Positions 334-64,000 of a stretch of DNA of 64,000 nt are shown here, in pieces. This stretch comes from an uncultured Chitinophagaceae bacterium (GTDB lineage: Bacteria > Bacteroidota > Ignavibacteria > UBA10030 > UBA8401): NCBI GenBank assembly GCA_964603685.1, contig CAZRWF010000005.1, forward strand, positions 2,721 to 66,720, read 5' to 3'. The translations under genes were made by a program, and so were the position numbers. A model generated the notes under the pieces. That model did no database searches. It was not told the origin of the DNA and was given only the letters and a program-made list of their open reading frames with translations. Numbering within the stretch: position 1 is the first letter of the stretch; each line of letters starts with the position of its first letter.

Positions 334-344
334 TCGGGCAACTC

Positions 345-3149: not shown

Positions 3150-3635
3150 TTACGATATTTTTATTTCATTGATCGTTGCAACCGCATATGCCACAGCTCC
3201 TTCGCCGACGCCGATAAAACCCATTCCTTCATTTGTCGTTGCTTTTACGGAGACGGCATGAATGCTCACACCGAGAATTTCTGCGATGGTCGTTCGCATT
3301 TGATCGACGTACGGAGCGATCTTCGGCCGTTCCATGACGACCGTTGTATCGATATTTCCGACTGCGTATCCCTTTGATCGCAATAATGCGACAACATTTG
3401 CCAGCAGATTGCGGCTGGAAATTCCCTTAAATGCGGGATCGGTGTCGGGAAAATGTTTACCGATATCTCCCATCGCAGCCGCTCCCAATAAGGCATCACA
3501 TATTGCATGCAGGAGAACGTCGGCGTCCGAATGCCCCAGTAGTCCGGACTCAAACGGTATTTCCACGCCACCCAGGATCAATTTCCTTTCCCGGGCAAAT
3601 CGATGAACATCAAATCCCATTCCGATTCGGGTCAT
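3150..3635 (-). CDS. ispF: 2-C-methyl-D-erythritol 2,4-cyclodiphosphate synthase
   Basis: Motifs GMGFDVHRF and [12 protein letters not shown] use the internal start [11 protein letters not shown] (3635) because the longest ORF (to 3689) would overlap the upstream acylphosphatase by 53 nt. Confidence 0.9.
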
Positions 3636-16996: not shown

Positions 16997-17566
16997 TCAT
17001 TGAGCGGAGTTCTTGTTGCCGTATTGATGCAACGTTTCAAAAAACCGGCGTCCATAGACAATCAATGAAAACCCGAGCAAACCGATGCTGAGCCATTGAA
17101 AAAACAGATATGCCGCGTGCAATGATGGATACCCCAGAACCGGAAAGACCAGCGTGAGCGCTAATATGGAGACAGCCACTTTTCCCGACATCAAGGAGGG
17201 CAAAATAATCCCTGTTTTCTTTTTGATATATAATCCGGCCAAAAAAATGATCAGATCACGCGTCAACACCGTCACGGCGAACCATAAGGGAATATCGCCA
17301 AAAAACGTCAGCATTACAACAATAGCGCCGATGGCGACCTTGTCGGCGAGCGGATCGATCACTTTCCCGAATTCGGATACTTCATTTCGCCGGCGCGCCA
17401 CATATCCATCCAACGCATCGGTCGCCACCGCGATGAGGATGATGAACAATGCAATTTCCCGGTGGAATGGAACCGGCGTGATCAAATAATACACCGCCGG
17501 CACCATCAAAACGATCCGGCTAATCGATAATGCATTCGAAATGGTCCACCATCCGGTTGTATTCAT
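16997..17566 (-). CDS. pgsA: CDP-alcohol phosphatidyltransferase (PgsA-like)
   Basis: Motif DALDGYVARRRNEVSEFGKVIDPLADK. I use the start MNTTGWW (17566, an ATGA overlap with the protease gene). The longest ORF extends 123 nt into the upstream gene. Confidence 0.75.
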   Translation of the reverse strand: MNTTGWWTISNALSISRIVLMVPAVYYLITPVPFHREIALFIILIAVATDALDGYVARRRNEVSEFGKVIDPLADKVAIGAIVVMLTFFGDIPLWFAVTVLTRDLIIFLAGLYIKKKTGIILPSLMSGKVAVSILALTLVFPVLGYPSLHAAYLFFQWLSIGLLGFSLIVYGRRFFETLHQYGNKNSAQ

Positions 17567-39363: not shown

Positions 39364-39375
39364 CGATTCTATACC

Positions 39376-39409
39376 AAAAAAAAATCGGAGGAACGTGCAA
39401 TCTCCGATT
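39376..39409 (-). terminator. Intrinsic terminator/operator-like hairpin 12 nt upstream of the thrS start
   Basis: On the minus strand: AAUCGGAG-AUUGCACGUUC-CUCCGAUU followed by nine U. Confidence 0.6.
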
Positions 39410-39435
39410 TTTGCCATCGTAAATTTTGCTATGAC

Positions 39436-39514: not shown

Positions 39515-39592
39515 TGGTGGACTCTAGAGGATTCGAACCTCTGACCTCTACCGTGTCAAGGTAGCGCTCTAAACCAACTGAGCTAAGAGTCC
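39515..39592 (-). tRNA. tRNA-Val (anticodon GAC), CCA encoded
   Basis: Hand-folded cloverleaf: acceptor GGACUCU/AGAGUCC, D arm GCUC/GAGC, anticodon stem CUACC/GGUAG with loop UUGACAC, variable loop AGGUC, T arm AGAGG-UUCGAAU-CCUCU, then discriminator A plus CCA. All stems are perfect. Confidence 0.9.
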
Positions 39593-39606
39593 ATTGTGCC
39601 GGTACG

Positions 39607-39639
39607 CAACAAAAATGGCACATCCACCATCGATGTACC
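39607..39639 (-). terminator. Rho-independent terminator closing the surface locus
   Basis: On the minus strand: GGUACAUC-GAUGGUG-GAUGUGCC (8 bp, one G-U) followed by AUUUUUGUUG. It begins about 45 nt after the stop of the OmpA-domain gene. Confidence 0.6.
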
Positions 39640-39684
39640 ATTTTGACGTGATAAAATACGACAAAGAGGGTGAAATTCCAACTA

Positions 39685-42600
39685 CTATTTCACCCGCTCG
39701 AATTCCACGCGCCGGTTTTTTGCTCTCCCCTCTTCCGTTTTGTTGGAGGCGATCGGATTGGCCGGTCCAAATCCTTGCGGCATCAACCGCCGCGATTCCA
39801 CCCCTTTGCTGACGAGATACGCCGCAACCTCTTTGGCGCGGTTCAAAGACATCCGACGATTCGCATTCGCGTTTCCGGTATTGTCGGTGTACCCGTTAAT
39901 CTGAATGGCGATGTCGGGATTGGCTTTCAGCATCTCGGCAATATTATCCAACACCACTTTCGATTCCGCCGTCAACGTTGCTTTCGACAGTTCGAAGATG
40001 ATCCCCTCCATCACGATCGGACCGGAGGAGGTTTCCCGGAGGGACTCAAGCAACTTCACCGCTTCGACCACCTTCTCCACCACATTGATGCTCGGCCGTT
40101 CGATATCCACAAATGTCGTTTCAAGCGGAACGGCTGCGGAATTGATGTTCGCTTTGACGATAATCGTCGCATCGGCGGAACGCACGATCGCGGTCTCGTC
40201 GAATTCATTGGTGATAGTCGCGTATGTTCTCTTTTTGAAGACCGTGTCCCGCGCCGCCGATTGCAACCGGGCGGAATAGGTGATGACGTTGGCACCCGAA
40301 CGAAGTAGGCCTCCGAGATCCATCGACGCGATGCGGAAAAATTCCAGTTGCATTGCATTCTGTTTTTCGGAGGAGGAGATCGCCATAGACCGGATGCGGA
40401 ACGAAAGATTGCGCGAAGGGACCGGAATTCCGTTCACAAAGAACGAACGATCGTTGACGATAAAATTGGAGGGCAACGTGTCGATGATCTTTGCTTCGGT
40501 GATTTTTTTGTTCGGATCGATATACAGCGCCGTTTTAAAGAAAAGATCGTCTCCCACGGTGACCGTGACGGAATCAGAGAGGTGATTGGAAACGCGCGGG
40601 TCGGAGGCCGACGTGTTGAGTTCCGATGTTTCGATCCGGTTCTTCATCGTATCCAATACGATGTTGTCGGTATAGACATGCCCTCCTTCCACGATAATGC
40701 TGTCCGTCGACATCACCGCAACGGAAGAAGCGGAAGTGAGTACGGTCCGCACTTTCGGGAACGATGTTACAATAGCGGAATAGGAGAGTTTTCCGAAATA
40801 GACAGCATTCCCTTTTCCGATGTTCCAACGAATATTGTTCCCCGACATGACCGGATTAATCCGCTTGCCGTTGAACAACGCGCTGTTTGGAATAAGCGTC
40901 AACCGTTCATGAAGATGATCTTCGATGGTCACTTTCTCCACAGGGCGGTTTCCCGAATACGCAAAGGCAATGAACATTTTGACGGTATCCACTCTGATCT
41001 TCCGGAGCGTATCGTCATAGAGATATTTCGGAATGGCCTGCCGCACCGCGGTTACTTTGTTTACTTTGGCGACCGAATGTTTAATTGAATCGGAGACAGA
41101 CCGGCGGACATAAAAATTGGCCCGAGCAATGCCGCTTTCGGTTACCCGAACGAATCGCGACGTGGGGTCTTTGGCAAACGCATTGTTTCCGGCAATCAGC
41201 CGGTCGTTGTTCGGCAGCGTCCGCTCGTTCACGCGCAACACATGTTGGCCCGGTTTCACTTCCGGCAGAGAAAACTTACCGTCATCGCCGGTGATGATCT
41301 TCGTTCCGTCTTCCATCCACAATTCCACATCTTTAATCCCGGTCTCCCCCTTGTCCTGATACGCATTCCGGTTGTCGTCGTAAAACACTTTGCCGATGAT
41401 CAATCCTTTTTCCGTAAACACACCCGGGCGGACGGTCACCTGCCATTGGGACGGTGAGGATACGAGCGTCGTTCCGAGACCGGCCACAGCACTGGCATAC
41501 GCCGTGTTGACACCTTCACTTTCCATGGCATCGGCACCGATGGCGAGTTGATATACCAGAAGTGACTGTTTCGACGAAGGGATCGTGTCGGTCATGTTCC
41601 ACCGGAGCTGGTTGTTGACCGGATCGATTACCGGTTCCACGGGCTTACCATTATACCGGGCGGAATTTTTCACATACTGAAATGCGTACGGAAGCAGATC
41701 ATAGATTCCTGTGTTGCGCAGGAATTGCGGACTGGAATTCGAAACGACGATTTGATACGTGACGATATCGCCGATCTCCGTTACTTTTTTATTGCCGGTT
41801 TTGACAATCTTCAGGAATGAGGCAATGTTCGGATTTTCATTGATACGCAACGTCGTATCCTTTCGGGCAAGGATCGAATCTCCCTTCATGACATACGCGT
41901 GCGACGTAATGGCGACATCGTTTCTCAGGGCGAAGTCCGTCACCAGTTTTAACGAAACGGAGTCCGTTACCCCCGGAGCAAGCGAACCAAGATAGATTGT
42001 GGAGACGCTGTCGACGATTTTTGTGGAATCCAGCGAGGATTTCGCCAGTGAGATTCCGCTCAGTCCGGCAGAAAAGAGCGTATCGACGATCCTGATACCG
42101 CGAATGCTGTCGGTCCCGGTATTGGAAAAACGGAATACATGGCGGATGCTATCCCCGGCGATGATCGTGTCGCGCGGTACCGTGAAGGAATTGGAGAATA
42201 CCAGATTCCCTTTGGAACGGATCGTGGTTGTGAGCGTGCTGTTCGCGGATAACAGATGCGACGAATACCAGAACCGGTTCATGATCCGCGTGCTGTCGGG
42301 TATGTTGGATGACACAATAAATCGTATCGTGACGGAATCCGACGTTAACGTTTTCAGAGTATCTTTCGTCCACCGAACGACACGGGTTACGGAATCGTAC
42401 AACGCCGGTGTGAAATTTCCGGACGACGCCGACACGAACCGTACGAACGGGGACAACGTATCCGTAACGGCGACGGTACGATGTTCCACGTTGCCGGTAT
42501 TGACAATCCGCGCCGACACCGTCACCGTATCCCCCGCCGAGGCGGTCGATGGACCGGCCGCCGTAAAACTCACCGTCGAATCGAGCGTGATCTGCAGATT

Positions 42601-44424
42601 CAGATTAACGGTCACCGTTCCGGAAGAGGTGTCGCTGACAAACGTAAATCCGGTAAAATTCGGGAACGCAGCACTATCCACCGAAATAACGTACCGCGCC
42701 GGACGCAGCCCTTCAAACTTAAACCGGCCGTTGGCATCCGTTTTTTGCTGTTGCACGCGGGTCAGGAGATTTTGCCGCTGCAATGTCCGAATGTTCGGAC
42801 TCCGGACGTTCGATGGGGCCAACGAATCCAGAAACACCGTAACACTTTCTGCCGGCACCGGAGTGCCGGATATTTTGTATTCGATCCTTCCGGAAATCAC
42901 GTTCGGAATAACAATGGGCGGCAGCGGAAATTTCGTCGGGTCCACTTCGGTCTGGGTTTTGACCGAATCTCCGAATTTATCCAGTACGACAATCTCCAAA
43001 AGATATTTCGTGATATCCTTATTGAGCGCGATGAAAAATTTACCGTCGCTCTTCGTTGTGTCGACGCCGACAATGCTGTTGCGCGCATCGGTCACGCGGG
43101 CGATGGCGCCTTGCAACGGGACTTTGTTAATACCGCTGACGACGGCACCGGTAACGGCACCGGGATAAATATAAATGTTTGCGGTATCGCTTTTGGTTCC
43201 GAGAGAGGGAGTTCCGGCTACCGCCGTAATTCGGGAGCGGAGAATTTCATTCTGCACGTTCACCGTTCGAAATCGAACGGAAGCCGATCCGTTCTGTACG
43301 GTTGTTGGGAATGTCGTTGCACCGTTATGAAAAGTACCGATCGTCGCCGTCAATGTTATCGGTGTTCCGTCGGGCAATATTGTTCCCAGAGAGTCTTTCA
43401 CCGTTACCGAAACGAGAGAGCTGTCCTTGTTCACTTGTCCAAATACAAATTCCGGCTGCGGAACAATGGCCACTGATTTCGGAAGGATGGGGACGATTCG
43501 GGTTATCGTCGTCGATCGATCCCCTTCCGGATCATTGGTTGAAAAAGTGCGTACGGAATGGAGAAGGTCCACATGTCCGATGTTGACCGCCGTGCGAATA
43601 TCAACGGTGAAGGAACGTGAGGAGAAAGCAGGAACAGATCCGATCGACCATTTTACGGTGCGTTGATTGTTCGACACACTGTCCGGTGTGATGGACGATG
43701 CAAAATAACTGCCGTGTGTTGAGATAGAATCATACACCACCGTTCCCGTTGCGGGAACATTCCCCTGATTCACCACCGTGACGGTGTACCGCAACACTCT
43801 CCCCGAACCGACAACCGGTTGTTCGGGGACCAAAGAAATCGCGATCCGCGGAAACATGCTGATGACAAACGTTTTTGCCGTTGACCGGATTGAATTCTCC
43901 CACGAAATATCCGCGTTCATGGTCAGTTGTGTGTTCACCGCAAGGTTGCTGTCGACAATAACTTTTACCCGGACGGTATCGCTTCTTCCGGGGGGAACGT
44001 TGAAAACGCGCCACGTGACCGTCGATCCGGAGATCACACCGCCGGTCGATCCGGGTAGGAACTTCATTCCCGCCGGCGGAAGAACACCTTCGATCAACGC
44101 CGTATCCGCCGTTTGATTTCCGACATTTCTATAGACCAAAGCAACGGCGAGCGTTTCTTTGCTGAAGACGAGCGAATCGGGATTGCCAAAGGAGATCTCA
44201 AAATTCGGCGCCTCCACAACAGTGAAGGTGACGATATTTGTCAGGACCGTATCACTCGGGAAGGACCGGTATTGAAAAACCGAACGGGCTTGGTTGGAGA
44301 TCGGAGTATTGGGGGCGGTTTGAGCCCGCAGGACGCCATCCGCGAACAATCCGATCAGCGCGATGGCGATCATCATCGTCGATCGGAATGTTGTTCTGAT
44401 GATATGTCGTACGGTGGCCGTCAT
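39685..44424 (-). CDS. 1579-aa secreted multi-domain protein: DUF11-type repeats, CarboxypepD_reg-like and SdrD B-like domains, C-terminal OmpA peptidoglycan-binding domain
   Basis: Signal peptide-like N-terminus. DUF11-type blocks (e.g. GDIVTYQIVVSNSSPQFLRNTGIYDLLPYAFQYVKNS). SdrD-B-like GKVFYDDNRNAYQDKGETGIKDVELWMEDGTKIITGDDGKFSL (about 41215-41400). OmpA_C block INGYTDNTGNANANRRMSLNRAKEVAAYL...NRRVEFERV (about 39688-40020). Confidence 0.75.
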   Translation of the reverse strand: MTATVRHIIRTTFRSTMMIAIALIGLFADGVLRAQTAPNTPISNQARSVFQYRSFPSDTVLTNIVTFTVVEAPNFEISFGNPDSLVFSKETLAVALVYRNVGNQTADTALIEGVLPPAGMKFLPGSTGGVISGSTVTWRVFNVPPGRSDTVRVKVIVDSNLAVNTQLTMNADISWENSIRSTAKTFVISMFPRIAISLVPEQPVVGSGRVLRYTVTVVNQGNVPATGTVVYDSISTHGSYFASSITPDSVSNNQRTVKWSIGSVPAFSSRSFTVDIRTAVNIGHVDLLHSVRTFSTNDPEGDRSTTITRIVPILPKSVAIVPQPEFVFGQVNKDSSLVSVTVKDSLGTILPDGTPITLTATIGTFHNGATTFPTTVQNGSASVRFRTVNVQNEILRSRITAVAGTPSLGTKSDTANIYIYPGAVTGAVVSGINKVPLQGAIARVTDARNSIVGVDTTKSDGKFFIALNKDITKYLLEIVVLDKFGDSVKTQTEVDPTKFPLPPIVIPNVISGRIEYKISGTPVPAESVTVFLDSLAPSNVRSPNIRTLQRQNLLTRVQQQKTDANGRFKFEGLRPARYVISVDSAAFPNFTGFTFVSDTSSGTVTVNLNLQITLDSTVSFTAAGPSTASAGDTVTVSARIVNTGNVEHRTVAVTDTLSPFVRFVSASSGNFTPALYDSVTRVVRWTKDTLKTLTSDSVTIRFIVSSNIPDSTRIMNRFWYSSHLLSANSTLTTTIRSKGNLVFSNSFTVPRDTIIAGDSIRHVFRFSNTGTDSIRGIRIVDTLFSAGLSGISLAKSSLDSTKIVDSVSTIYLGSLAPGVTDSVSLKLVTDFALRNDVAITSHAYVMKGDSILARKDTTLRINENPNIASFLKIVKTGNKKVTEIGDIVTYQIVVSNSSPQFLRNTGIYDLLPYAFQYVKNSARYNGKPVEPVIDPVNNQLRWNMTDTIPSSKQSLLVYQLAIGADAMESEGVNTAYASAVAGLGTTLVSSPSQWQVTVRPGVFTEKGLIIGKVFYDDNRNAYQDKGETGIKDVELWMEDGTKIITGDDGKFSLPEVKPGQHVLRVNERTLPNNDRLIAGNNAFAKDPTSRFVRVTESGIARANFYVRRSVSDSIKHSVAKVNKVTAVRQAIPKYLYDDTLRKIRVDTVKMFIAFAYSGNRPVEKVTIEDHLHERLTLIPNSALFNGKRINPVMSGNNIRWNIGKGNAVYFGKLSYSAIVTSFPKVRTVLTSASSVAVMSTDSIIVEGGHVYTDNIVLDTMKNRIETSELNTSASDPRVSNHLSDSVTVTVGDDLFFKTALYIDPNKKITEAKIIDTLPSNFIVNDRSFFVNGIPVPSRNLSFRIRSMAISSSEKQNAMQLEFFRIASMDLGGLLRSGANVITYSARLQSAARDTVFKKRTYATITNEFDETAIVRSADATIIVKANINSAAVPLETTFVDIERPSINVVEKVVEAVKLLESLRETSSGPIVMEGIIFELSKATLTAESKVVLDNIAEMLKANPDIAIQINGYTDNTGNANANRRMSLNRAKEVAAYLVSKGVESRRLMPQGFGPANPIASNKTEEGRAKNRRVEFERVK

Positions 44425-46094
44425 TGTATTTTTACCGAAAATTCAACCGTTCCGGAAGAATTTGCTGCCAGTGTGCCGATACTGACTGTAAGCATGGTGC
44501 GGTTTCCGGAAATGTTTTGGATAGATACGGACGGATGATTGTCCGCAACGGCGATCCCGTTTACTTTAATGCTGTTCACCACATAGGATGTCGACAACGG
44601 AGCGGTATCAATGACGGAAAAGTTTGTCACTGGAACGGATCCGATATTGACGAACCCGATCGTATAGGTCACCACACCGCCGGCCGGCTGGCTTCCGACC
44701 GGAAAAACGCTTTTGGTCATCTCCACCAGCGGTTCATTTACGGTGGTCACGACGGTTGCCGTATCTTTTTTCTGTCCATTTCCCGACGATGATGCGATGA
44801 CCGCAAGTGTGTCTCGAATTCCGACGGCGAACGAACGCGGAACGATGACCCGAGCGAAAATTCGCACACTGTCCCCGATCGCGACCGAATCTACATCCGC
44901 ACCAAAGGCACCGTTGGTATTGGTCAATTCCGGATCCCCGGCGTCGGGAAGCGCGTTGTTATTTCCATCCCGGAAAAATTTCCAGGCAAATCCCCGCGTT
45001 GACGTGTGCGACAATTCGATCACATCTTTGAACGAACCGACATTCCGGACCGAATACCGGTACCACGCCGTGTCTGCCGGTTCTTTGACAAGAGCGGATG
45101 AGGTGCAGACGATGTCGACGCCGTATTCCGGGGTACCGGAAACGGTCAATAGAACGGTGTTGCTGACGGTGTAATACGCATTATTGCCGACCGAATAATT
45201 GATGCCGAACGATGCCGGAATGACGGTGCCCGCGGAAATTCCGTTGTTGATCTGCACGGTCAAGGTGATCGTCACCGATTGACCGGCGGCAAGAGTGCCG
45301 ATATTCCAGGAGAACGGCGTCGACGATCCCGAGAACGTTCCGATCGTCGTCGTCCCCCCCACCAATGTGACCGCTCCATTCGGGGTGTGTTGAATCACCA
45401 GATTGGCCGCCGCTACCGATCCGGAATTGGTGAGGACATAGGTGTACGTTACATTTTGTCCGGCACCGGGGGTCGGGTTGTTGATTGTGACACCGGGATT
45501 CAGAGGATCGATCCCCGCCGTTTGTACGGTGGTCACGTATACGCCGGATACTGTACGGAGGGAATCGAACAAAGATTTTACGACAACAGTCGCACTGTCC
45601 TTTGCACCGTTTAACGTGACATCTTTCGGCACAGAGATCCGCACTACCGCCGCAAATTGAGCATCGGCAATCAGCGAAGGTGATTGTGTGATCGCGCCGG
45701 CCGCCGCTTCGGACGATTGCAGAATTCCGTCACTGTTAAGATCACGGAAAATTCTTGCCGTCCAACCGCGCGATGAGGCAACGGACAAACGGGCGGCATC
45801 CGTACCGTTTCCCGAATTGGTAATCACGACCGGATAATCTGCAGACGTGCTGTCGCTGGCTGTCGTCACGGAATTCGAGGGGGGTGAAATATTAAAGGAG
45901 CCCTTTTGAGCCACTGTGATCGTCAACGCGGCAGAATATACCGTATCGATAACCGCACCGCTGCGGGTGGAGAATGTGACGCGCGATCGGGATTGAATTA
46001 TTGTTCCTGCCGGAGTTCCTGCGGCAAATACTTCCCCGGCGAGCAGCACGAACATCAATGCGAATGCGGCGGTATGTTGTTTCGACGTTGTCAT
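44421..46094 (-). CDS. 557-aa secreted DUF11/CARDB-like repeat protein (paralog A)
   Basis: Signal peptide ...LLAGEVFA/AGTPAGT. Repeated beta-sandwich modules with the signature ITNSGNGTD...W...F.D.N.DG. C-terminal DUF11 module ends ...GTVEFSVKIQ. ATGA overlap with the downstream gene. Confidence 0.7.
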   Translation of the reverse strand: MTTSKQHTAAFALMFVLLAGEVFAAGTPAGTIIQSRSRVTFSTRSGAVIDTVYSAALTITVAQKGSFNISPPSNSVTTASDSTSADYPVVITNSGNGTDAARLSVASSRGWTARIFRDLNSDGILQSSEAAAGAITQSPSLIADAQFAAVVRISVPKDVTLNGAKDSATVVVKSLFDSLRTVSGVYVTTVQTAGIDPLNPGVTINNPTPGAGQNVTYTYVLTNSGSVAAANLVIQHTPNGAVTLVGGTTTIGTFSGSSTPFSWNIGTLAAGQSVTITLTVQINNGISAGTVIPASFGINYSVGNNAYYTVSNTVLLTVSGTPEYGVDIVCTSSALVKEPADTAWYRYSVRNVGSFKDVIELSHTSTRGFAWKFFRDGNNNALPDAGDPELTNTNGAFGADVDSVAIGDSVRIFARVIVPRSFAVGIRDTLAVIASSSGNGQKKDTATVVTTVNEPLVEMTKSVFPVGSQPAGGVVTYTIGFVNIGSVPVTNFSVIDTAPLSTSYVVNSIKVNGIAVADNHPSVSIQNISGNRTMLTVSIGTLAANSSGTVEFSVKIQ

Positions 46095-46116
46095 CGGAAT
46101 ACGATTGAGCGCTCCG

Positions 46117-47799
46117 TTAATTGATCGTTGCTTTATACGTTATCGTTCCGGCGGCCGATTGACCGGCGATTGATCCGATCGTCACCGTGATCCGTTTTTT
46201 CCCTTCGACCGTCGTCACCGATACTTCGTCGCCGTCCGCCGCATCGGTCTTCGCGACCCCACCCAGCGTGACGGAATTCGACACATAGGTCATATTCTCC
46301 GCCTCCGTTTCGGCAATCAGAACGTTGTATGCTTTACCGTGACCGGTATTTTGATATGTAACGGTAAATGTCATTTCCGATCCCGGAGGTTGATTCCCGG
46401 AAGGAAGGACGCTTCGGACCAGTACGATCGACGGTATATTGATCGTCGTGGTCGCATTGGCGCTTTGAAATTTGGACTGGTCGAACGACGACTTGACGGT
46501 GAATGTCGTCACATCCTGCGTTTGATCCCCAGAAACGAGCGGGACGATTAACCGGGCCAGCACTTTAACACTGTCGTATGCCGCAACGGAATCGACATCC
46601 ACACCGCCGGCCGCATTCGTGTTCGTCAGCGCCACATCGCCGGTATTCCACACGCCGTTACCGTTGACATCCTTAAAATACGTCCACGTATAACTTTTGG
46701 AGGAACTGTATTCCATTTCCAACACGTCTTTCGCATTGCCGATGTTCTTCACCGTGAAGGGATAATACAACGTGTCTTCCTGTTCCTTCGCTGCGGTAAC
46801 AACCAGCGGAGAAATTTCGACCCCTCGAATGACACCGACCGCAGCAGAGGGATTATTGGAATGGACGGTAAACGTCACACCGCCGACCGTATAGGTGACG
46901 GCAATCGTGTTGTTCAACACCGAACCGTTGGAAAGTCCGCTCAAAACCTGCAGTGTAATCGAGACCGTCACCGAACTTCCGGGATTGATCGTGCCGATGT
47001 TCCAGAGGATCGGATTGGAGGATGTATTCACCGTTCCCGAGGTTGAAGTCGCGGAGACAAAAGAGAATAATGATGTGTTGAACAAATCGCTGAACGACAC
47101 TCCCGTGGCCGCCACGCTGCCATTGTTGGTCACGGTCATCGTATACACAACATTATCACCCGGCGAAGGATTGGTGGGGGTGACGGACAATCCCGAACTG
47201 ACATTCGAAAAATTGGCCGTATTCACCGTCGTACGCGCCTGGGACGTATTGGTCTTGTTTCCGTCGAACTGCGATGTCGCGGTGATCACGGTGGTGTCGA
47301 CCTGTCCGTTCAACGACGCATCGCGCGGCGTGAAGATGCGGAGAAAGACTTTATAGGTCCCGTCCGCAGCGATTGCCGCTGTCTGCGTGACCGCTCCGGC
47401 ATTGATCTCCGATGTTTGTAGAATGCCGTCACCGTTGCTGTCCACATAGAAGGAACGTGACCAGGACTTGGACGAAACGGACGAAAGCGTAAACTGATCG
47501 CTGCCGTTTCCGGAGTTCGTGATTGTCACCGGGTATTCCGTAAACACGCTGTCCCGCGACGTTGTTTTCGCATTGGTGGCGGGGGAAATATTTACGGAAG
47601 CGATTTGGGCCACAACAAAGTTGATGTAATTCGAGTACACCGTATCGACGCGTGCGCCGCTGGCGGTCGAATACGTCACCTTCGATCGGGTTTGAATTTG
47701 CGTCCCCGCCGGCGTTCCGGCGGCCTGCAGAAAATGTATGCCGGCGAACACCAGCAAGCATCCCCAGATCCGCCAATGAGCGGTAGTCATGATTTTCAT
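46117..47799 (-). CDS. 560-aa secreted DUF11/CARDB-like repeat protein (paralog B)
   Basis: Colinear with paralog A and, by eye, roughly 40-45% identical over the first 150 mature residues (AAGTPAGTQIQTRSKVTYSTASGA...). C-terminal DUF11 module ends ...GTITYKATIN. Confidence 0.7.
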   Translation of the reverse strand: MKIMTTAHWRIWGCLLVFAGIHFLQAAGTPAGTQIQTRSKVTYSTASGARVDTVYSNYINFVVAQIASVNISPATNAKTTSRDSVFTEYPVTITNSGNGSDQFTLSSVSSKSWSRSFYVDSNGDGILQTSEINAGAVTQTAAIAADGTYKVFLRIFTPRDASLNGQVDTTVITATSQFDGNKTNTSQARTTVNTANFSNVSSGLSVTPTNPSPGDNVVYTMTVTNNGSVAATGVSFSDLFNTSLFSFVSATSTSGTVNTSSNPILWNIGTINPGSSVTVSITLQVLSGLSNGSVLNNTIAVTYTVGGVTFTVHSNNPSAAVGVIRGVEISPLVVTAAKEQEDTLYYPFTVKNIGNAKDVLEMEYSSSKSYTWTYFKDVNGNGVWNTGDVALTNTNAAGGVDVDSVAAYDSVKVLARLIVPLVSGDQTQDVTTFTVKSSFDQSKFQSANATTTINIPSIVLVRSVLPSGNQPPGSEMTFTVTYQNTGHGKAYNVLIAETEAENMTYVSNSVTLGGVAKTDAADGDEVSVTTVEGKKRITVTIGSIAGQSAAGTITYKATIN

Positions 47800-47823
47800 T
47801 GTTGACCCCCTTCAATAATTTCT

Positions 47824-48909
47824 TTATCGAACCACTGCTTTGAATGAAACAATCCCCTCTTCACCCGGGAGAATTTTTTTCGTGATTTTCCATTGAATCG
47901 AGATGACCGCCGATTGTTGCGGAGGTGTCACCGTCGACCGGACCACGGTAATCTCGCAATCCTCCCCTGCCGCGGAATTTTCCACGTACGTCATGTTTGC
48001 GGGGACATCATTGGTGATTGTCGCATCCTGTGCGAACGCCGTGCCGATGTTGTGGTAGAGAACGGAATAGGTAACCGTATCCCCCGGAAAGGGATTCATA
48101 CGATCGGCCGAATTGATCAACGCCAGCTCCGTTGTTTCTTTTTTGGAACTGTTCATCACCTCCAGATGCGAAGCTTGGATGGCCGATTTTTCAAAATTTT
48201 TCACCGTTGTCGCATTCACGCGGAAGGACAACACCTCGGTTTCCGCTCCGGCGGAAGAGACATTTTCGGACGACACCACAACGGTTTTTCCCGGTCCTTT
48301 TTGTTCTCCCGCTGCGGTCGTGACTGCCGTTCCGGCAATGCCGGAGATCAGCACAAACGGATAATCCGCCTTCCCCTTTTCCACCCGTGTCGTCAGCACT
48401 CCGTTTGCACCGACCGGGCGGAGATATCCGTCCCCGAACAGTGTGAGCATGGCGGAATACGTTTTGTTGGGAACAGATTTTACTTTCAGCGCAACGGTCA
48501 CCGTTTTCCCGAGCGGCATCGTTTCATCGGCAACGATATTGGATTCCCACGTAACGGTCACGGCATTTGCCCCTGTGCCGGAAGAGTACACTGCGGTTGT
48601 TTTCAGGCCGGTCGATTGGACTTTAGCTTTTGCCGCAAAATCTTTCGCCGTAACGGAAAGAATCGTCTTCTGCCCCTCGTTGAGCCGTAAAAAAACGAAC
48701 GATTGATCGGTGTTATTCGAAAGCCAGAATCCGAATGTCGATTCCTCTTTCGGATTTTTGACGGGCCGGACAACCGCAAAGGCGATCTTCCCGCTTTTCG
48801 TTTTACCCGGAGTATTCACTTGCAGCTGATAGTCATGCAGCTTCAATTGCGTACCTTGCGAAAACGCCAATGAGCTGACAATCAAACTCACGATGAGGAA
48901 TGTTTTCAT
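47824..48909 (-). CDS. 361-aa secreted protein: unique N-terminal about 255 aa plus a C-terminal DUF11 module
   Basis: Signal peptide MKTFLIVSLIVSSLAFSQG. C-terminal PFPGDTVTYSVLYHNIGTAFAQDATITNDVPANMTYVENS...GIVSFKAVVR. AGGAG 7 nt upstream. Confidence 0.65.
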   Translation of the reverse strand: MKTFLIVSLIVSSLAFSQGTQLKLHDYQLQVNTPGKTKSGKIAFAVVRPVKNPKEESTFGFWLSNNTDQSFVFLRLNEGQKTILSVTAKDFAAKAKVQSTGLKTTAVYSSGTGANAVTVTWESNIVADETMPLGKTVTVALKVKSVPNKTYSAMLTLFGDGYLRPVGANGVLTTRVEKGKADYPFVLISGIAGTAVTTAAGEQKGPGKTVVVSSENVSSAGAETEVLSFRVNATTVKNFEKSAIQASHLEVMNSSKKETTELALINSADRMNPFPGDTVTYSVLYHNIGTAFAQDATITNDVPANMTYVENSAAGEDCEITVVRSTVTPPQQSAVISIQWKITKKILPGEEGIVSFKAVVR

Positions 48910-48925
48910 TTCGATGCTCCTGCGA

Positions 48926-59032: not shown

Positions 59033-59056
59033 GGGTACTCTGAAAATACTTAAAAG

Positions 59057-62000
59057 TTATTTGTGAAAATAATTCAAAATCTTTTCGGTGAATTTCGCAC
59101 GAACCGACAGGAACGGTCCGGCCGATTGATAGTCGCGTCCGACGAGGTCTTTGTCCTCGGTGCCGACAAAATTGTATCCAACGGCAAAGCGGAGATTTTC
59201 GAACACCACATTGCCGATCTCCGCACTGTATCCGTGTTTCGCCGATTGAGAATTGGCCTGTCCGGCAATACGGGAACTCAGGATCCGGTATTCCGCCGCA
59301 ACATCGAAGCTGTTCCAGCGCAAGTCGTATTCCGCCCGGAGCAGGTAGAAATCGGTCACGGCTGATGCCGACAGGCCGTAGGCCTCATCCGTCGCATATT
59401 TGAGCGCATACTTGGTGCCGATTTCCAAACCGAAAACCGGTTCGATGAAAGTATGGAGCGAAACGATATCCGCGGAGGAGGAGGTGTTCGGCATAACGAC
59501 GCCGTTCCGTTCGATTCTCTTTTCATACTTGCCGATCGCATTCAGCCAATCCATTTCCGTCGGACGGTAGGCGATGCCGATCGCATTATCGAACTTGGAG
59601 AGCGTGCCGCTTCCGGCCGGCGTTCCGATCTGTTGCGCCGAAAGGACGCCATCGGAGAAAGTGGACGACGGCGTTTGCGGAGCGATTCTCTGTTCCACAT
59701 AATACGTGAATTTGTCGATCACGGTAAAGTCGTTCGCCAATCGGATGTCACCGGCGAAGGAAAGGTTCTTTCTCACCGCTTGGGTATTTTTTGCATACTC
59801 CCCTTTAATCGTCGCTTTGTACGATTCTTTCGGCAGATATTCCAAACCTAACGAAAGTGCATCATTGTCGTTCGTCTTCGCTTCCGCCAGTTGGCGATCC
59901 AACGCACGAGTCCGTTCGAATGCCGCATTGGCCGTCACTTCTTCCGACAATTTCGTTGTGTTCTTTAAGCCGATGCTCGCCTGGTTCCGTTTGCCGTTGA
60001 TTCCGTTACCGATTTCGTACCGGCCGGTCATCGTCGTTCCGTATCCGAGTTCCGATCCGACGCCGAAGATGGTGGAACTTCCGCTGCCGATATAGAAACG
60101 CTGCTGTGCGGACAGCGTTATGTCGTCCGTCACCCGGTATTCCGCGCCGATGGCTGCGCTGGAGGGTGTGATCTGTTCTTTCGCCGAACTGCTGATACTT
60201 TGTTCGTATTCACCGGTCAGGTTAATCCGATCGTTCGCGCGTACGGTCGTTTTCGCGTTGATCAACGTCGATTGTTTCGTGTCAACCAACGCTGTATCCA
60301 TGCGGGCGCTTTCGTATCGCAGATTTTCCGCACGGAGTGCGATGGTGGCAAAACTGCTGATCTTCCGTTCCGCACCGCCGGTGATGGAATGAACGTTCAC
60401 AGAGGCGTTACCGCTCGTTTGTTGTTGGGAATAAAAATCCGCCATGAGTTTTGTCTCAAACAGTCCGTCATACACACCGCCCACGCCGTATTTCGTCGAA
60501 CCGAGTTCTGCAGCACCGCCGGCTCCGGCCGTTTGGTTGACGAAACCGGATTCCACTTTGCGGAAATACGATTTCACTTGCATCCGGTCGATCGGTGCAC
60601 CGCCGAGTTCGATTTTCCACGCCGCACCGCTGTTCGACACGTCAGAGCCGTGTGCCACTTCCACATTCGTTTGCAGGCGGTCGGCATACGAATACCGCGT
60701 ATACACGCCAAGCACGGTGTAATTGGTCGGCATCCGTTCTTCCGTCACCGCCGTCGCGCCGATCGTCCACCCTTTCAGAATCCGTTGTTCTGCCTGCACG
60801 CCGGTGACGTAGTTCGTCGGGAAACCCGATTGAGATTCGTACGAAACGACGATGTACACCGGATTTCCCGCTTGATCGATGCTGTTCACCGGTTGTTTGA
60901 AGAACAATGTTCCTTGAACGTAGTCGATCTCATAATCACCGAAGCGGGATTTTTCGGCACGGTTGACGATCACTTCATTGTGCCGTTTGTCGCGCGTTTC
61001 GATTCTGATTTTTTCCGAACCCGGAACAACGTTGCTCACACCGAGGAAATAATATCCCGAAATACCTTGTCCGCGGATCTCATCCTGCACCACTTTCCGG
61101 TCAGTGACCGTCGCAAATACATCCGCTTTGCCGGTGCGCGATTCATAATGACCGCTGATGCCGGTGAATGTCCGGTCGTACCGGGCCAGTTCGTTCTGAC
61201 CAAACGCCGTATTAAAATCGCCGAACATCAGATACGAACGGTTCAATTCCAATTTGAGGAAGAACGGATTGCTTGTCTGTGCCGTATAGTCCACGCGACT
61301 GTTGTCGCCATAGATGGAATAGAGCACATCCGGATCAAGATCGCGGAAGAGCCGGTCCTTCTGGCGGCGTTGATTGTCGAACGAAGCCGTCAGAAGATAT
61401 TTTTCCATCACGGTTCCCCGTCCGTAGAAGGCGAGGCGTCCTTCGGAATGGAATCCGTCGTCGATGGCCGACCGGTTTTTGATTCCGGTAAGATTGCCGG
61501 AAGCGGACAACAGCGATCCTTCGGCATCCGCGGAACCGACGATCATCAACGGCACGATCGGTGTCGTAAATTCGATCTCTTGTGCAGCGGAGACATTACC
61601 CCACGATGCGGCGATGGTGGAAACAAGCGATGCGGAGGGAGACTGAATGCCGAACCGTACTTTCCCGCTGTCAATTCTCACTTGAATGCCGTCCTGATTC
61701 GGATCCACATCCGTCGCGACAATTCCGGCGGTGTCGCTGGTAAGGGTCACATGGTACATTCCGGGAATGATGACGCCGAATTTGTCTTTCACAATCGCTT
61801 CGAACGAAGACGTGGTGCGTCCGTCCGCAACAAATGCATTCGCCGCGGAGACGATGTCGATCGCGTGCGGTTCACCGGCGACATGCATCCGCACGGTATC
61901 CGTTTCCGGGAACAATCCGTGCGCAACGACCGCAAACGTTACCGGGCCTTGTTCGACGGCGATATTCAGGAAATCATGGACTCCGTCCGGACGAACCGTA

Positions 62001-62194
62001 CCGGAATCGACGGCCGTACCGTTCATCCACAACACGACCTTCGTCCCCGGGGCGGCAGAGATGATCACCGCTTGGCGCGTCATCATGCTGACCTCGTTCT
62101 GCGCGGGCGTTACGATCTGCAGCCGTTGAGCGAACGAAACGCTCGCAGCGGCGATCAGAATCAAAAGGTGATATGTAAGATGTCGGAGTTTCAC
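59057..62194 (-). CDS. 1045-aa putative outer-membrane beta-barrel protein with N-terminal Ig-like (Big_1-type) domains; GTG start
   Basis: Signal peptide MKLRHLTYHLLILIAAASVSFAQ. Big_1-like ADGRTTSSFEAIVKDKFGVIIPGMYHVTLTS. About 800 aa of alternating amphipathic, aromatic-capped strands (e.g. FYLLRAEYDLRWNSFDVAAEYRIL, NLRFAVGYNFVG, GPFLSVRAKF). Confidence 0.55.
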   Translation of the reverse strand: MKLRHLTYHLLILIAAASVSFAQRLQIVTPAQNEVSMMTRQAVIISAAPGTKVVLWMNGTAVDSGTVRPDGVHDFLNIAVEQGPVTFAVVAHGLFPETDTVRMHVAGEPHAIDIVSAANAFVADGRTTSSFEAIVKDKFGVIIPGMYHVTLTSDTAGIVATDVDPNQDGIQVRIDSGKVRFGIQSPSASLVSTIAASWGNVSAAQEIEFTTPIVPLMIVGSADAEGSLLSASGNLTGIKNRSAIDDGFHSEGRLAFYGRGTVMEKYLLTASFDNQRRQKDRLFRDLDPDVLYSIYGDNSRVDYTAQTSNPFFLKLELNRSYLMFGDFNTAFGQNELARYDRTFTGISGHYESRTGKADVFATVTDRKVVQDEIRGQGISGYYFLGVSNVVPGSEKIRIETRDKRHNEVIVNRAEKSRFGDYEIDYVQGTLFFKQPVNSIDQAGNPVYIVVSYESQSGFPTNYVTGVQAEQRILKGWTIGATAVTEERMPTNYTVLGVYTRYSYADRLQTNVEVAHGSDVSNSGAAWKIELGGAPIDRMQVKSYFRKVESGFVNQTAGAGGAAELGSTKYGVGGVYDGLFETKLMADFYSQQQTSGNASVNVHSITGGAERKISSFATIALRAENLRYESARMDTALVDTKQSTLINAKTTVRANDRINLTGEYEQSISSSAKEQITPSSAAIGAEYRVTDDITLSAQQRFYIGSGSSTIFGVGSELGYGTTMTGRYEIGNGINGKRNQASIGLKNTTKLSEEVTANAAFERTRALDRQLAEAKTNDNDALSLGLEYLPKESYKATIKGEYAKNTQAVRKNLSFAGDIRLANDFTVIDKFTYYVEQRIAPQTPSSTFSDGVLSAQQIGTPAGSGTLSKFDNAIGIAYRPTEMDWLNAIGKYEKRIERNGVVMPNTSSSADIVSLHTFIEPVFGLEIGTKYALKYATDEAYGLSASAVTDFYLLRAEYDLRWNSFDVAAEYRILSSRIAGQANSQSAKHGYSAEIGNVVFENLRFAVGYNFVGTEDKDLVGRDYQSAGPFLSVRAKFTEKILNYFHK

Positions 62195-62203
62195 GTTATT
62201 GGC

Positions 62204-62233
62204 GGAACTACCCGGATCACTCCGGATAGTTCC
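62204..62233 (-). promoter_or_regulatory. Strong intercistronic stem-loop (12 bp) between the upstream DUF11 gene and the barrel gene
   Basis: On the minus strand: GGAACUAUCCGG-AGUGAU-CCGGGUAGUUCC (one G-U). No U-tract follows. It sits in a 48-nt gap. Confidence 0.55.
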
Positions 62234-62242
62234 AAAAGAGCA

Positions 62243-64000
62243 TTAGTTCACTTTCATCGTATATTTGACCTGCCGTTTTCCGCCGGCCGCAAGTGTTGTC
62301 ACCGTGGTGACATACCCGCCCGTATGTTTTTTGATCGTTCCATACAAAGTTCCGGCCGTCGACGGATGATTCGGAATCGTCACATGATCGGAGTTGGCTG
62401 CTTCCGTTCCGGTCACGAGATCCCACAGGTACGCCGAGTTGGAGACGTTCGTCATGTTCGCATTGTTCGCGATATTGTCCTCGATGATGACGTCTTTCGC
62501 TTCACCATCCCCCGTGTTTTCGATAAGCACATAGATTGTCACGGAATCGCCCGGCATAATCGACGCTAAGCTGTTCGTGCTGACCGTATCGCCGGCCGTC
62601 GCTTGGTGAATCTTTTTCGAGCGGGTCACGACGATATTCGGCAACAGCGGATCGACTTGGCCATGGAGATTGTAATCGGTCGGGATGTTGACTGAATCGC
62701 GACGCGAGTTGACATGGTGACGGATGTGGGTGATCGCCGTGGTCAATCCGCTCGGAACCGCCATGCGGATGTACACCGTGATGCTGGCACCTTTGGCGAT
62801 CAATTTGGTGGTATTGAGATCGGCACCGCCGCCGCCGGATGCGAACAAGGAATCCTGCGAACCGCTGAACCCGGCACCGGTCACTTCATACCAGAACCGT
62901 CCGGTGCTCCACGTCCCTTGCGACGCAGTGTTATACCGTACATTAAATCCGTCCTGACCGTTGCTGTTGTTGGTAATGGTGTAAGCAAACGTCACTGTAT
63001 CGCCCGGATCGGCCGATTCGGTCGTATCGACAATGGCGATGTCGGATTGCTGCAAGAAGGATTTGAACAAGACGCTGAACGATTGCGGCGAATTCGCGAT
63101 CACGCGGGTGCGTCCGATTTTTCCGTTCGTGGAATCGTTGTAGGTAACGGATAACGTCGGTGTGCGCGTCGTTCCTTCCAGGACGCTGTGTAAATCCGCC
63201 ATCAACAGGAATAAACTGTCGGCGGAATCGGTCGTCGAGGAACCGCCGTTCGACGCCACGGTGCCGAGGTTATAGGAGCGGGACGATCCCGAACCGGACC
63301 AGTTCGTTCCGGAAGAGAACGTTTGATTCGCATCGAACGTCACGGTGATGGTGACATTCTCCGCACGGCCGGAGCCGGCGTTCGACACCGTTGCGTTGTA
63401 TCCGGTGGTCGCACCGGGACGATATCCGGCCTGACCGCGGGTGACCGACAACGTCAACTTGGATTGTTTCACGCGGGTGGTCCGTTCCACGGTGGACGAA
63501 AGAGCATTTTGGAACGAAGCGGCCACGGCGCGCGGACCGGTCGCATCGGTGTTCAGATACGTCGTATCGGTCATGTTCGCGGTGGAACGGGTAAAGAAGC
63601 TGATGACGATGTTGTTCTTGTCATACAAATATCCCGAACCGGTGCTGTCCGCTTCCGATTTGAGATACAGCTTCGCATACACGGTCGCGTTGCCGTCGTT
63701 CGTCACGGTGTCCTGAAGGACGTTTTTATTCGTGCCGAGCAGCGCTTCCGTGAGGCCGGCATTTTTGTACCAGCCGATGCTGTCCAAATACGATGCACCG
63801 CCGGTGACATTAGCCAGGAATTGAAATTTATCCTGACCGTTACCGTTGTTGGTGACCGTCATGGTGTATACGATATATCCGCCGTCGTATGCTTCGCCGC
63901 TGGACGTTCCGACGTTGAGCGTGGAAGCCGGCCGATGGGCCACGTAGACGCTGACGGAACCGTTCACGGCGGACATCGCCGAACCGTTTTTATCGTTGTA
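62243..64000 (-). CDS. Secreted multi-DUF11/CARDB-like repeat protein, C-terminal 585+ aa (5' end beyond the window)
   Basis: The reading frame stays open to the window edge (YNDKNGSAMSAVNG...). Modules such as YTMTVTNNGNGQDKFQF, YNATVSNAGSGRAENVTITV and FAYTITNNSNGQDGFNVRY. The C-terminal DUF11 module ends ...GKRQVKYTMKVN. Confidence 0.7.
   Translation of the reverse strand, partial: YNDKNGSAMSAVNGSVSVYVAHRPASTLNVGTSSGEAYDGGYIVYTMTVTNNGNGQDKFQFLANVTGGASYLDSIGWYKNAGLTEALLGTNKNVLQDTVTNDGNATVYAKLYLKSEADSTGSGYLYDKNNIVISFFTRSTANMTDTTYLNTDATGPRAVAASFQNALSSTVERTTRVKQSKLTLSVTRGQAGYRPGATTGYNATVSNAGSGRAENVTITVTFDANQTFSSGTNWSGSGSSRSYNLGTVASNGGSSTTDSADSLFLLMADLHSVLEGTTRTPTLSVTYNDSTNGKIGRTRVIANSPQSFSVLFKSFLQQSDIAIVDTTESADPGDTVTFAYTITNNSNGQDGFNVRYNTASQGTWSTGRFWYEVTGAGFSGSQDSLFASGGGGADLNTTKLIAKGASITVYIRMAVPSGLTTAITHIRHHVNSRRDSVNIPTDYNLHGQVDPLLPNIVVTRSKKIHQATAGDTVSTNSLASIMPGDSVTIYVLIENTGDGEAKDVIIEDNIANNANMTNVSNSAYLWDLVTGTEAANSDHVTIPNHPSTAGTLYGTIKKHTGGYVTTVTTLAAGGKRQVKYTMKVN

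Follow-up and report, generated by a model that had tools for sequence, protein, structure and literature searches.

The window analysed here, the whole 64,000-nucleotide stretch of contig CAZRWF010000005.1, ends in a locus of approximately 24 kb in which seven open reading frames (ORFs) follow one another in a single direction, all on the minus strand. In transcription order these encode protein A, a 1045-aa protein predicted to form an outer-membrane barrel, the 3368-aa giant protein C, and proteins D, E, F and G (Table 1; coordinates throughout are window positions). The locus belongs to a gene module in which G can be fused to the barrel, in which many proteins end in a truncated immunoglobulin (Ig)-like domain and others begin with the complementary half of that domain, and in which the distribution of the two halves follows the type of protein. 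Such proteins could join into a fibre at the cell surface.

The gaps between the genes amount to 48, 24, 16, 24 and 22 nt, and the stop of F overlaps the start of G by 4 nt. A preliminary description, made from the letters of this DNA, had placed seven co-directional minus-strand genes at these coordinates, with these lengths and gaps, together with a 12-bp stem-loop between A and the barrel gene and a good terminator after the operon; the ORF list agrees, and both hairpins are present, the second with a U-run after it. The description had also given every complete product a signal peptide, five of the seven proteins a common C-terminal DUF11-type module, the 1579-aa protein an OmpA C-terminus and the locus a pair of tandem paralogs of approximately 560 aa. 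All of this holds: in all six complete proteins the N-terminus, read directly from the sequence, is hydrophobic and resembles a signal peptide, A, C, D, E and F all end in the module, PF00691 is found in G with 82.4 bits, and E and F are 40% identical (E 4e-121).

Library scans find DUF11 (PF01345) in six of the proteins, with scores of 112 bits for G, 76 for E, 50 for F, 29 for D, 27 for A and 25.6 for C against a cutoff of 24.6, and they find OmpA, SdrD_B and CarboxypepD_reg in G. DUF11 has been renamed CLIPPER in Pfam and is treated as a CnaA-like isopeptide domain (PMC12617251). Protein G contains five CLIPPER-type domains in addition to SdrD_B and CarboxypepD_reg; its OmpA region matches solved OmpA-like domains (E 8e-23), and it is otherwise without a match among the sequences of the Protein Data Bank (PDB). 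Protein A is a DUF11/CLIPPER protein of approximately 631 aa, of which some 47 first codons lie outside the window, judging from a 631-aa ortholog (locus L005). For the giant protein the PDB sequences give an fn3 match only. The structure of E was predicted with AlphaFold2 (pLDDT 90, falling to 56-79 in the N-terminal extension) and contains four beta-sandwich domains, of which the first, D1, resembles the third, D3, and the fourth, D4, is a shorter CLIPPER domain than the second, D2. The N-terminal extension has the highest conservation within the protein and the lowest confidence in the model. Foldseek returns only generic tandem-Ig proteins for this model.

The 1045-aa protein was modelled with AlphaFold2 from 42 homologs (pLDDT 76, pTM 0.58), the strand count and insert position being taken from the secondary-structure string. 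Modelled alone it consists of two Ig domains and a giant barrel, in line with the claim of a barrel with Ig-like N-terminal domains, and in the family alignment the small beta-sandwich insert and the strands next to it form the most conserved stretch. Nothing in Pfam or NCBIfam matches the protein above threshold, a weak sub-threshold Big_1 match standing alone, and a profile of the barrel family finds no match among the PDB sequences. Foldseek gives weak matches (TM <=0.3) to SlpA, SprA, MtrB, PapC and BtuB; among solved barrels SlpA, with 30 strands, and SprA, with 36 (TM <=0.19), come closest, PapC stands at rank 44 (TM 0.16-0.20), and LptD and TpsB are not among the 50 matches listed. The Ig domains have a Big_1-like fold and resemble intimin (D0-D1), invasin and GH2 C-terminal domains. 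Since the family libraries and the PDB hold no match and the Foldseek matches are weak, the protein lies outside the characterised usher, TpsB, type IX secretion system (T9SS) and LptD-type families, as had been supposed. Membership of the usher, TpsB and LptD families was rejected, as were identities as an autotransporter or a TonB-dependent transporter. None of the 208 close relatives is named, and in a library clustered at 50% identity the family has 5275 representatives (2425 at E<1e-30), mostly fused proteins of about 2000 aa. The barrel protein is a candidate for the translocon or for the platform of assembly. On the opposite strand, across the barrel gene and the end of gene A, runs a 789-aa ORF (60200-62569, plus strand), which we take to be a chance ORF of the kind that long antisense frames give.

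To compare the locus with its relatives we scanned one genome per species, which gave 517 barrel-encoding places; the best 80 loci were kept and examined, and ORF matching and clustering covered 83 loci. In the loci examined, barrel relatives occur in more than 12 phyla, with groups including Ignavibacteria/Bacteroidota, Marinisomatota, Fidelibacterota, Latescibacterota, Krumholzibacteriota, Lentisphaeria and Planctomycetota, and further Desulfuromonadales, Nitrospirota, Campylobacterota, Gammaproteobacteria, Acidobacteriota and Omnitrophica. In these loci the barrel has DUF11 proteins as its neighbours, and three layouts can be distinguished. The window type (i) runs A, barrel, giant, D, E and so on; a paralogous type (ii) has a large protein followed by D-like, E-like and G-like proteins and the barrel, the G stop abutting the barrel start; and in distant phyla (iii) a single protein of 1500-2300 aa unites a G-like stalk with the barrel, sometimes with one or two OmpA domains between them. 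More than 20 loci encode the G-like protein and the barrel as one ORF, and about half of these fused proteins also contain an OmpA match; the fusion is a functional tie between G and the barrel. The preliminary description had asked whether barrel homologs keep company with DUF11 proteins and an OmpA-carrying stalk across genomes, and the neighbourhood survey agrees that they do. That this is a conserved module found in many phyla, including the fusion of G with the barrel, is close to certain.

In the source databases the proteins go under names such as 'hypothetical', 'DUF11 domain-containing', 'Ig-like domain-containing' and 'carboxypeptidase regulatory-like domain-containing'. Two metagenome-assembled genomes (MAGs) hold layouts i and ii together (L005 with L020 in CAZQSI01, and L006 with L019 in CAYXEE01), with barrels approximately 40% identical, which suggests that one cell may make two distinct fibres. 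One fused stalk-barrel gene (L060) lies on a contig of a MAG labelled Candidatus Micrarchaeota; a binning error is the most likely explanation because an outer-membrane barrel would be senseless in an archaeon without an outer membrane.

The comparison of complete and terminal CLIPPER domains carries most of the argument. D2, the complete internal domain of E-type proteins, was the sole source of a hidden Markov model (HMM) of 126 positions. The C-termini of A, C, D, E and F align to approximately positions 3-87 of this model and the alignment ends with the protein, the last two strands of the domain being missing. Among the co-located proteins that are neither barrel nor OmpA-terminated, 148 of 148 end in the pattern ...G.sG.[VI].[FY][KR]V.[VI][NKQRDE]-COOH. 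Behind the signal peptide, the A-like, E-like and G-like or fused proteins begin (A)GTPAGT.I.N.A.V.Y...SN.V...V, a start that is not seen in D-like or giant proteins; two orthologs of A (L001 and L005) start AAGTRAGTKLTSTATINY at this place. In protein E, D2 ends in ...LQVLSGLSNGSVLNNTIAVTYTVGGVTFTVHSNNPSAAVGV, D4 ends in ...KATIN and the N-terminus starts AGTPAGTQIQTRSKVTYSTASGARVDTVYSNYINFVVAQ, so D4 followed by the N-terminus matches the full sequence pattern of D2. We refer below to the truncated C-terminal domain as the acceptor and to the N-terminal extension as the donor.

When the N-terminus of E or F is appended to the acceptor, the alignment reaches position 125 and gains 19-20 bits, compared with -1 to -3 bits for 100 shuffles (maximum +8). 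The same behaviour is found across the loci examined, where 100 of 132 terminal modules end at positions 84-88 and none reaches position 110, as 40% of 359 internal domains do. Joining acceptor and donor from the same locus gives a mean gain of 23.5 bits over 211 pairs, 196 of which reach at least position 115; shuffled donors give -0.9 +/- 2.9 bits, and 99% of the real pairs lie above the 95th percentile of the shuffles. An HMM of the donor motif finds 88 N-termini as against 10 internal sites.

The two halves are not carried by the same proteins. Counted over the complete ORFs of the examined loci, barrel-only proteins have neither (0/50 for donor and for acceptor), G-like proteins have a donor in 16 cases out of 29 and fused proteins in 9 out of 16, with no acceptor in either group, and large proteins (>1000 aa) have no donor and an acceptor in 7 of 11 cases. 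Small proteins (<=400 aa) are mostly acceptors (33/43, with a donor in 5/43), and among 61 mid-size proteins 48 have a donor, 34 an acceptor and 26 both. The window follows this pattern: A, the first gene of the operon, bears both elements, the giant has no donor motif, D is acceptor-only, with relatives in other phyla that are single-module proteins of approximately 160 aa, and G has no acceptor. A protein with a donor alone or an acceptor alone cannot be satisfied within one chain, and complementation between molecules is therefore the economical reading. We regard such split-domain complementation as likely.

A version of the system was found in a cultured gammaproteobacterium, Novilysobacter antarcticus (GCA_019802285.1, JAIEUJ010000002.1, about 567.7-588.2 kb; L084 10001-18998), as a minimal operon of four genes. 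Its products are an acceptor-only protein of 165 aa, a protein of 362 aa with donor and acceptor, a protein of 1608 aa that unites a donor with the barrel (barrel E 5e-121), and an 808-aa CshA_NR2 adhesin with an acceptor-like C-terminus. By its sequences this operon appears to follow the same four-part logic, including a putative tip protein with the adhesive CshA_NR2 domain.

The chemistry of the CLIPPER domain raises the question of whether some joints are covalent. The triad of the solved domain is K715/D748/N806 (PMC12617251), and positions K5/D40/N98 of our HMM have the same spacing. A search of the PDB sequences with the domain consensus did not retrieve the CLIPPER crystal structure 9IFR, and the triad positions are therefore based on how the residues are spaced and on how well they are kept within internal domains, 170 of 224 of which have D40 and N98. 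In the terminal modules the triad is divided over two polypeptides, with Asn98 on the donor and Lys5 and Asp40 on the acceptor. The donors have Asn at position 98 in 66 of 88 cases (Ser in 15, Thr in 4), and position 40 is Asp or Glu in 50 of 56 acceptors with the Lys as against 29 of 59 without it. Loci of types ii and iii typically pair Asn donors with acceptors that have both Lys and Asp. Other K/D/N pairs are the small protein of L043 with its E-like partner and the 165-aa and 362-aa proteins of Novilysobacter. Within the window the triad is kept only by the acceptor of F (EMTKSV with the Lys, SVIDTAP with the Asp) together with the donor of G (TPISNQA with the Asn); F and G are also the pair whose genes overlap. 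A spontaneous intermolecular isopeptide bond at some joints is a tentative suggestion, the least certain part of what we propose, and the fibre would not require it.

Pfam and NCBIfam scans of the seven proteins for known export machinery gave no match to POTRA, usher, chaperone, sortase, ABC/MFP or ATPase families, as expected from the claim that the visible locus lacks the known secretion systems. Clustering of neighbouring ORFs at the 83 loci gave no recurrent non-DUF11 partner beyond local synteny except a MerR-like regulator (13 loci, all of the window type). Syntenic relatives with barrels 57-73% identical encode, upstream of A, a MerR/HTH_17-type regulator, an aminotransferase, a protein of DNA-alkylation repair and permeases; judged from these relatives, regulatory, metabolic, repair and transport genes stand where canonical secretion genes had been named as the finding that would speak against a separate system. 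The MerR/HTH_17-type protein is about 300 aa long and lies just upstream of A in L001 (7031-7945), L002 (3781-4695) and L003 (6918-7823); it is a candidate dedicated regulator and in the source contig probably lies just past position 64000.

The organism does have cargo of the T9SS. The preliminary description had reported a T9SS C-terminal domain on an S8 protease elsewhere in the window and none on the proteins of the locus, and both parts stand: the S8 subtilase (17563-21792, minus strand, 1409 aa, with FG-GAP repeats) carries the type-A domain TIGR04183 with 23.9 bits against a cutoff of 23, and the C-terminal 149 aa of these five proteins (A, C, D, E and F), searched at E<=1 with this protease as positive control, match TIGR01451 only and neither TIGR04183 nor TIGR04131. 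The protease is thus a T9SS cargo in this organism, unlike the fibre subunits. A reading of the subunits as T9SS cargo was rejected, with no sorting domain at E<=1 and the module occurring outside Bacteroidota.

Taken together we propose, with a probability of approximately 0.6, that the locus encodes a self-contained system making a peptidoglycan-anchored, strand-complemented heteropolymeric surface fibre that leaves the cell through the barrel. The acceptor would be the terminal CLIPPER Ig-like domain without its last two strands, present on every secreted subunit but the anchor, and the donor would be the two-strand hairpin at the mature N-terminus of A-, E/F- and G-type proteins, the two joining head to tail in trans. 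The roles follow from the elements carried: D and the giant, as acceptor-only proteins, would form distal ends, A, E and F, with both elements, the shaft, and G, as a donor-only protein, the base. A is accordingly a candidate abundant shaft subunit and E a candidate shaft subunit, C a candidate distal adhesin, D a candidate distal or cap subunit and G a candidate basal anchor. The G-like and barrel-fused proteins, as donors only, would close the base, which the OmpA domain of G would fix to peptidoglycan. An OmpA domain must be periplasmic; in G it stands at the C-terminus, beside or, in fused relatives, joined to the N-terminus of the barrel, with the donor at the far N-terminal end. The distal proteins have an extracellular look, with fn3 here and CshA_NR2 in Novilysobacter.

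The barrel would be both the outer-membrane pore for the folded fibre and its site of assembly, an usher-like function without a chaperone, in which the beta-sandwich insert would act as plug or gate and the two periplasmic Ig domains would handle arriving subunits. A stalk passing through a wide barrel is the simplest arrangement, and the barrel is, in our view, probably the conduit. A covalent seal would form where an acceptor with Lys and Asp meets a donor with Asn, in the window between F as acceptor and G as donor. With no conserved chaperone, ATPase or other partner, folding and complementation, possibly together with bond formation, would drive assembly. The gene module, the fusion, the two complementary domain halves and their distribution over the proteins are shown; the joining of the halves in trans, the route of the fibre through the barrel, the assembly order and the covalent joint are inferred. 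The first sketch of the locus, in which a barrel and a scaffold anchored on peptidoglycan go with subunits that have one module in common and with a giant distal protein, is supported, and fits the module, the fusion and the polarity.

Several observations weigh against this proposal. The scans of the seven proteins and the neighbourhood clustering indicate no encoded energy source or chaperone. Where an OmpA domain lies between stalk and barrel, the stalk would plausibly have to thread back through the pore, and many loci begin with the gene of the small acceptor-only protein, an odd position for a mere cap. The case for complementation comes from sequences alone, and parts of it are weaker than the rest: the N-terminus of G in the window adds just +6 bits, within the maximum of the shuffles, the donor threshold is not reached by 13 of the 29 G-like proteins or by 7 of the 16 fused ones (about 45% missed), and the Pfam DUF11 profile shows no gain on concatenation, only the related DUF7619 profile extending, by approximately +5 bits. 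In the AlphaFold2 model the truncated D4 by itself has high confidence, and the module might therefore be stable without a donor. The number of strands and the position of the plug depend on a model of pLDDT 76. In the window the donors of E and F have Thr or Ser in place of Asn and the acceptors of E, D and C have no Lys, so at most one joint here could be covalent.

Three other explanations have to be set beside the fibre. The surface structure may be real and the barrel a mere outer-membrane anchor or porin, with export by a type II secretion system or T9SS encoded elsewhere. The lack of an energy source or chaperone at the locus and the T9SS cargo nearby in the same organism would suit this explanation, the conduit role is deduced rather than seen, and N-terminal Ig domains linked to an OmpA protein are what a simple anchor might have. 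We nevertheless consider it unlikely. A T9SS C-terminal domain is missing from all five subunits even at E<=1, the module has no further conserved gene beside it, and a barrel as large as some 36-40 strands, containing a conserved insert that resembles a plug, far exceeds the needs of an anchor. The module is also present in Desulfuromonadales, Nitrospirota, Planctomycetota, Campylobacterota and Gammaproteobacteria, and T9SS is not known to occur in these groups.

Less likely again is a scaffold that stays within the envelope, in which the DUF11 proteins would remain periplasmic, like Chlamydia OmcB, and the outer membrane would be fastened to the wall by the barrel and the OmpA protein in the manner of Deinococcus SlpA. 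OmpA domains beside or between stalk and barrel, SlpA as the best fold match of the barrel and weak Chlam_OMP6 matches in fused relatives all point in this direction; on the other side, the 3368-aa fn3 protein and the CshA_NR2 tip protein of Novilysobacter suggest a function outside the cell, a chain of tens of Ig domains would be far longer than the periplasm is wide, and the polarity separates the donor end of G from the end that bears OmpA. We give similarly little credence to a cluster of independent fibrillar adhesins that do not polymerise, in which the motifs would reflect circular permutation within a chain or similarity at domain boundaries. CLIPPER stalks with OmpA-like anchors are known as single-chain fibrillar adhesins (PMC12617251), AlphaFold2 gives E as a monomer with confident domains, and complementation within the chain is possible in principle for E, F and A. 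This would leave the donor-only (G-like and fused) and acceptor-only (D-like and giant) proteins unmatched, and the same truncation point in 100 of 132 modules across phyla, together with the gene order, overlap and fusion, speaks for a single functional unit. Of these explanations the fibre is our preferred reading.

No account of the split CLIPPER domain, the barrel family or the gene module was found in the literature searched; the tafi paper (PMC11821415), considered as a link between DUF11 and donor-strand pili, is actually about DUF1102. A close parallel in organisation is with chaperone-usher pili (Fim/Pap; PF00577, PapD-like). In both there is a tip adhesin with an acceptor and without a donor and a special basal subunit that ends the fibre; the barrel in the outer membrane is dedicated to the system, has an internal insert that follows its first few strands and bears Ig-like domains in the periplasm; an ATPase is absent; and a likely major-subunit gene comes first and is followed by an RNA hairpin. 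At the level of sequence an incomplete Ig fold filled by the N-terminus of a neighbour (positions 88-125) is also common to both, although the type of fold differs. The differences are that no chaperone gene occurs among the seven products or the recurrent neighbours, that the barrel has approximately 36-40 strands rather than the 24 of an usher, with no usher sequence similarity and a TM of about 0.2 to PapC, and that two strands, forming the hairpin of a CnaA-type CLIPPER domain, are donated instead of a single strand of the pilin fold. In addition, the subunits of the locus are multi-domain proteins, and the base is tied to peptidoglycan by OmpA or fused to the barrel.

The sortase pili of Gram-positive bacteria share with the locus isopeptide-type Ig-like pilins of the CnaA/CnaB class, a division into tip, shaft and base, a wall-attached base, and links between subunits that may be covalent and Lys-based. 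The locus has no sortase or LPXTG (the C-termini stop directly after the last strand), its hosts are diderms with an outer-membrane barrel, and the bond would form spontaneously in a rebuilt domain and not by transpeptidation. Archaeal threads (Saci_0406) polymerise by donor strands without a chaperone, with a proposed isopeptide between subunits that involves Asn and with cap-like proteins in the cluster (PMC9715654). All three features have counterparts here, but the fold is unrelated, Asn57 of the threads joins the N-terminal amine of subunit n+2 in place of a Lys-Asn triad (PMC9715654), and with no outer membrane the threads have neither a barrel nor a peptidoglycan anchor. The CLIPPER adhesin B9T28_05395 of Acinetobacter is built like protein G, with a CLIPPER stalk and a C-terminal OmpA-like anchor, and has the same domain family and K/D/N chemistry; its bonds lie within a complete domain of one polypeptide, and the passages of PMC12617251 drawn on here portray no split domain, partner barrel or accessory subunits and mention intermolecular isopeptides for other systems only.

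SprA of the T9SS is likewise a very large barrel (36 strands) that passes folded proteins, its cargo has a C-terminal beta-sandwich and it occurs in the FCB group, but there is no sequence relation, the TM is <=0.19, no Por/Gld motor or ring genes are linked to the module, and the module reaches well outside Bacteroidota. Type V secretion (autotransporter, two-partner, inverse) differs in that no Autotransporter, POTRA, ShlB or IAT_beta match was obtained and in that its barrels have 12 or 16 strands, the modelled barrel of the locus being about three times larger. The SpyTag/SpyCatcher pair is also a split Ig-like isopeptide domain, in which Lys and a catalytic acid stand on one part and the partner is a terminal strand, and the covalent bond is spontaneous; that pair is engineered and of the CnaB2 type (Lys-Asp), whereas the split at the locus appears natural and of the CnaA type (Lys-Asn), with a two-strand donor and a bond that is predicted. 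A natural 'split-Catcher' pilus, in which a covalent folded chain is made without sortase, chaperone or ATP, passes through a barrel of some 36-40 strands and is tied down by OmpA, would be a new class of pilus assembly; we regard this strongest form of the proposal as rather doubtful. The principle of donor-strand-complemented fibres is known from chaperone-usher pili, type V pili, TasA and archaeal threads, and we rate the machinery as new.

The stem-loop behind gene A is conserved in its own right. It is kept in 13 of 16 orthologous loci, and in the alignment 99.4% of cells are paired, with compensatory changes in 9 of the 12 pairs. Covariation is 0.738, compared with 0.29 in shuffles (0 of 500 reach 0.738) and <=0.13 in slid controls, and the loop is conserved as well (AGUGAU or AGUAAUA; GAGU-containing). 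A U-tract is missing, and Rfam gives no match. The stem-loop may thus be an mRNA element not described before, probably acting as an mRNA stabiliser or partial terminator, and the parallel with pilin-first operons suggests that it may increase the amount of A relative to the downstream products.

Table 1. Genes, protein regions and hairpins of the locus, in transcription order; gene C encodes the giant protein.
Feature	Residues (aa)	Window position	Strand	Basis or score
Gene A		62243-63976+, continues past window edge	minus	ORF list
A, truncated C-terminal CLIPPER module		~62246-62560	minus	HMM positions 14-87 of 126
RNA stem-loop, 12 bp, gene A/barrel intergenic, GGAACUAUCCGG-AGUGAU-CCGGGUAGUUCC		62204-62233	minus	dG -24.9
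Barrel gene, 1045 aa		59057-62194	minus	ORF list
Barrel protein, signal peptide	1-22			AlphaFold2 model
Barrel protein, two Ig-like domains	25-210	61565-62122	minus	AlphaFold2 model
Barrel, ~36-40 long strands in continuous run	216-1032	59099-61549	minus	AlphaFold2 model
Small beta-sandwich insert, plug-like, after ~strand 7	~365-443	60866-61102	minus	AlphaFold2 model
Gene C, 3368 aa		48926-59032	minus	ORF list
C, fn3	270-347			Pfam/NCBIfam scan
C, complete CLIPPER domain	3142-3248			
C, truncated CLIPPER (acceptor)	3271-3368	48929-49222	minus	
Gene D, 361 aa		47824-48909	minus	ORF list
D, truncated CLIPPER (acceptor)	264-361	47827-48120	minus	
Gene E, 560 aa		46117-47799	minus	ORF list
E, donor extension	27-65	47605-47721	minus	
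E, D2, complete CLIPPER	196-324			
E, D4, truncated CLIPPER (acceptor)	456-560	46120-46434	minus	
Gene F, 557 aa		44421-46094	minus	ORF list
F, donor extension	25-63	45906-46022	minus	
F, acceptor	459-557	44424-44720	minus	
Gene G, 1579 aa		39685-44424	minus	ORF list
G, donor-like N-terminal extension	35-78	44191-44322	minus	
G, C-terminal OmpA (PF00691)	1477-1571	39712-39996	minus	82.4 bits vs cutoff 27.2
Terminator-like hairpin, intrinsic type, 13-bp stem + UUUUUGUU		39604-39644 (hairpin 39612-39644)	minus	dG -19.7

The terminator-like hairpin marks the end of the operon; it was not in the output of a pattern scan. Directly downstream of it are a tRNA-Val(GAC) gene (39515-39592, minus strand) and next threonyl-tRNA synthetase (37447-39417), and the locus therefore sits among housekeeping genes and not in a mobile island. 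The remaining genes of the window are housekeeping genes as well (ThrRS, PheT, MutL, RNase Y and others), and the nearest relatives are Ignavibacteria-like 'Bacteroidota' metagenome assemblies.

The barrel family, for which neither Pfam nor NCBIfam offers a model, comprises thousands of proteins, many of them from phyla known mostly through environmental genomes. Since the cultured Novilysobacter antarcticus has a four-gene version, the idea is directly testable there and this bacterium is a practical model organism. If the proposal is true, the acceptors and donors may be natural orthogonal protein-ligation pairs of the SpyTag/SpyCatcher type, and the fibre would be a sortase-free diderm counterpart to the isopeptide-stabilised, wall-anchored pili of Gram-positive bacteria. 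It would also add a new pathway of fibre assembly and secretion for bacteria with an outer membrane, beside the chaperone-usher, type IV, type V, curli and T9SS pathways, and would explain how the CLIPPER/DUF11 'fibrillar adhesins' of Gram-negative bacteria reach the cell surface and stay there.

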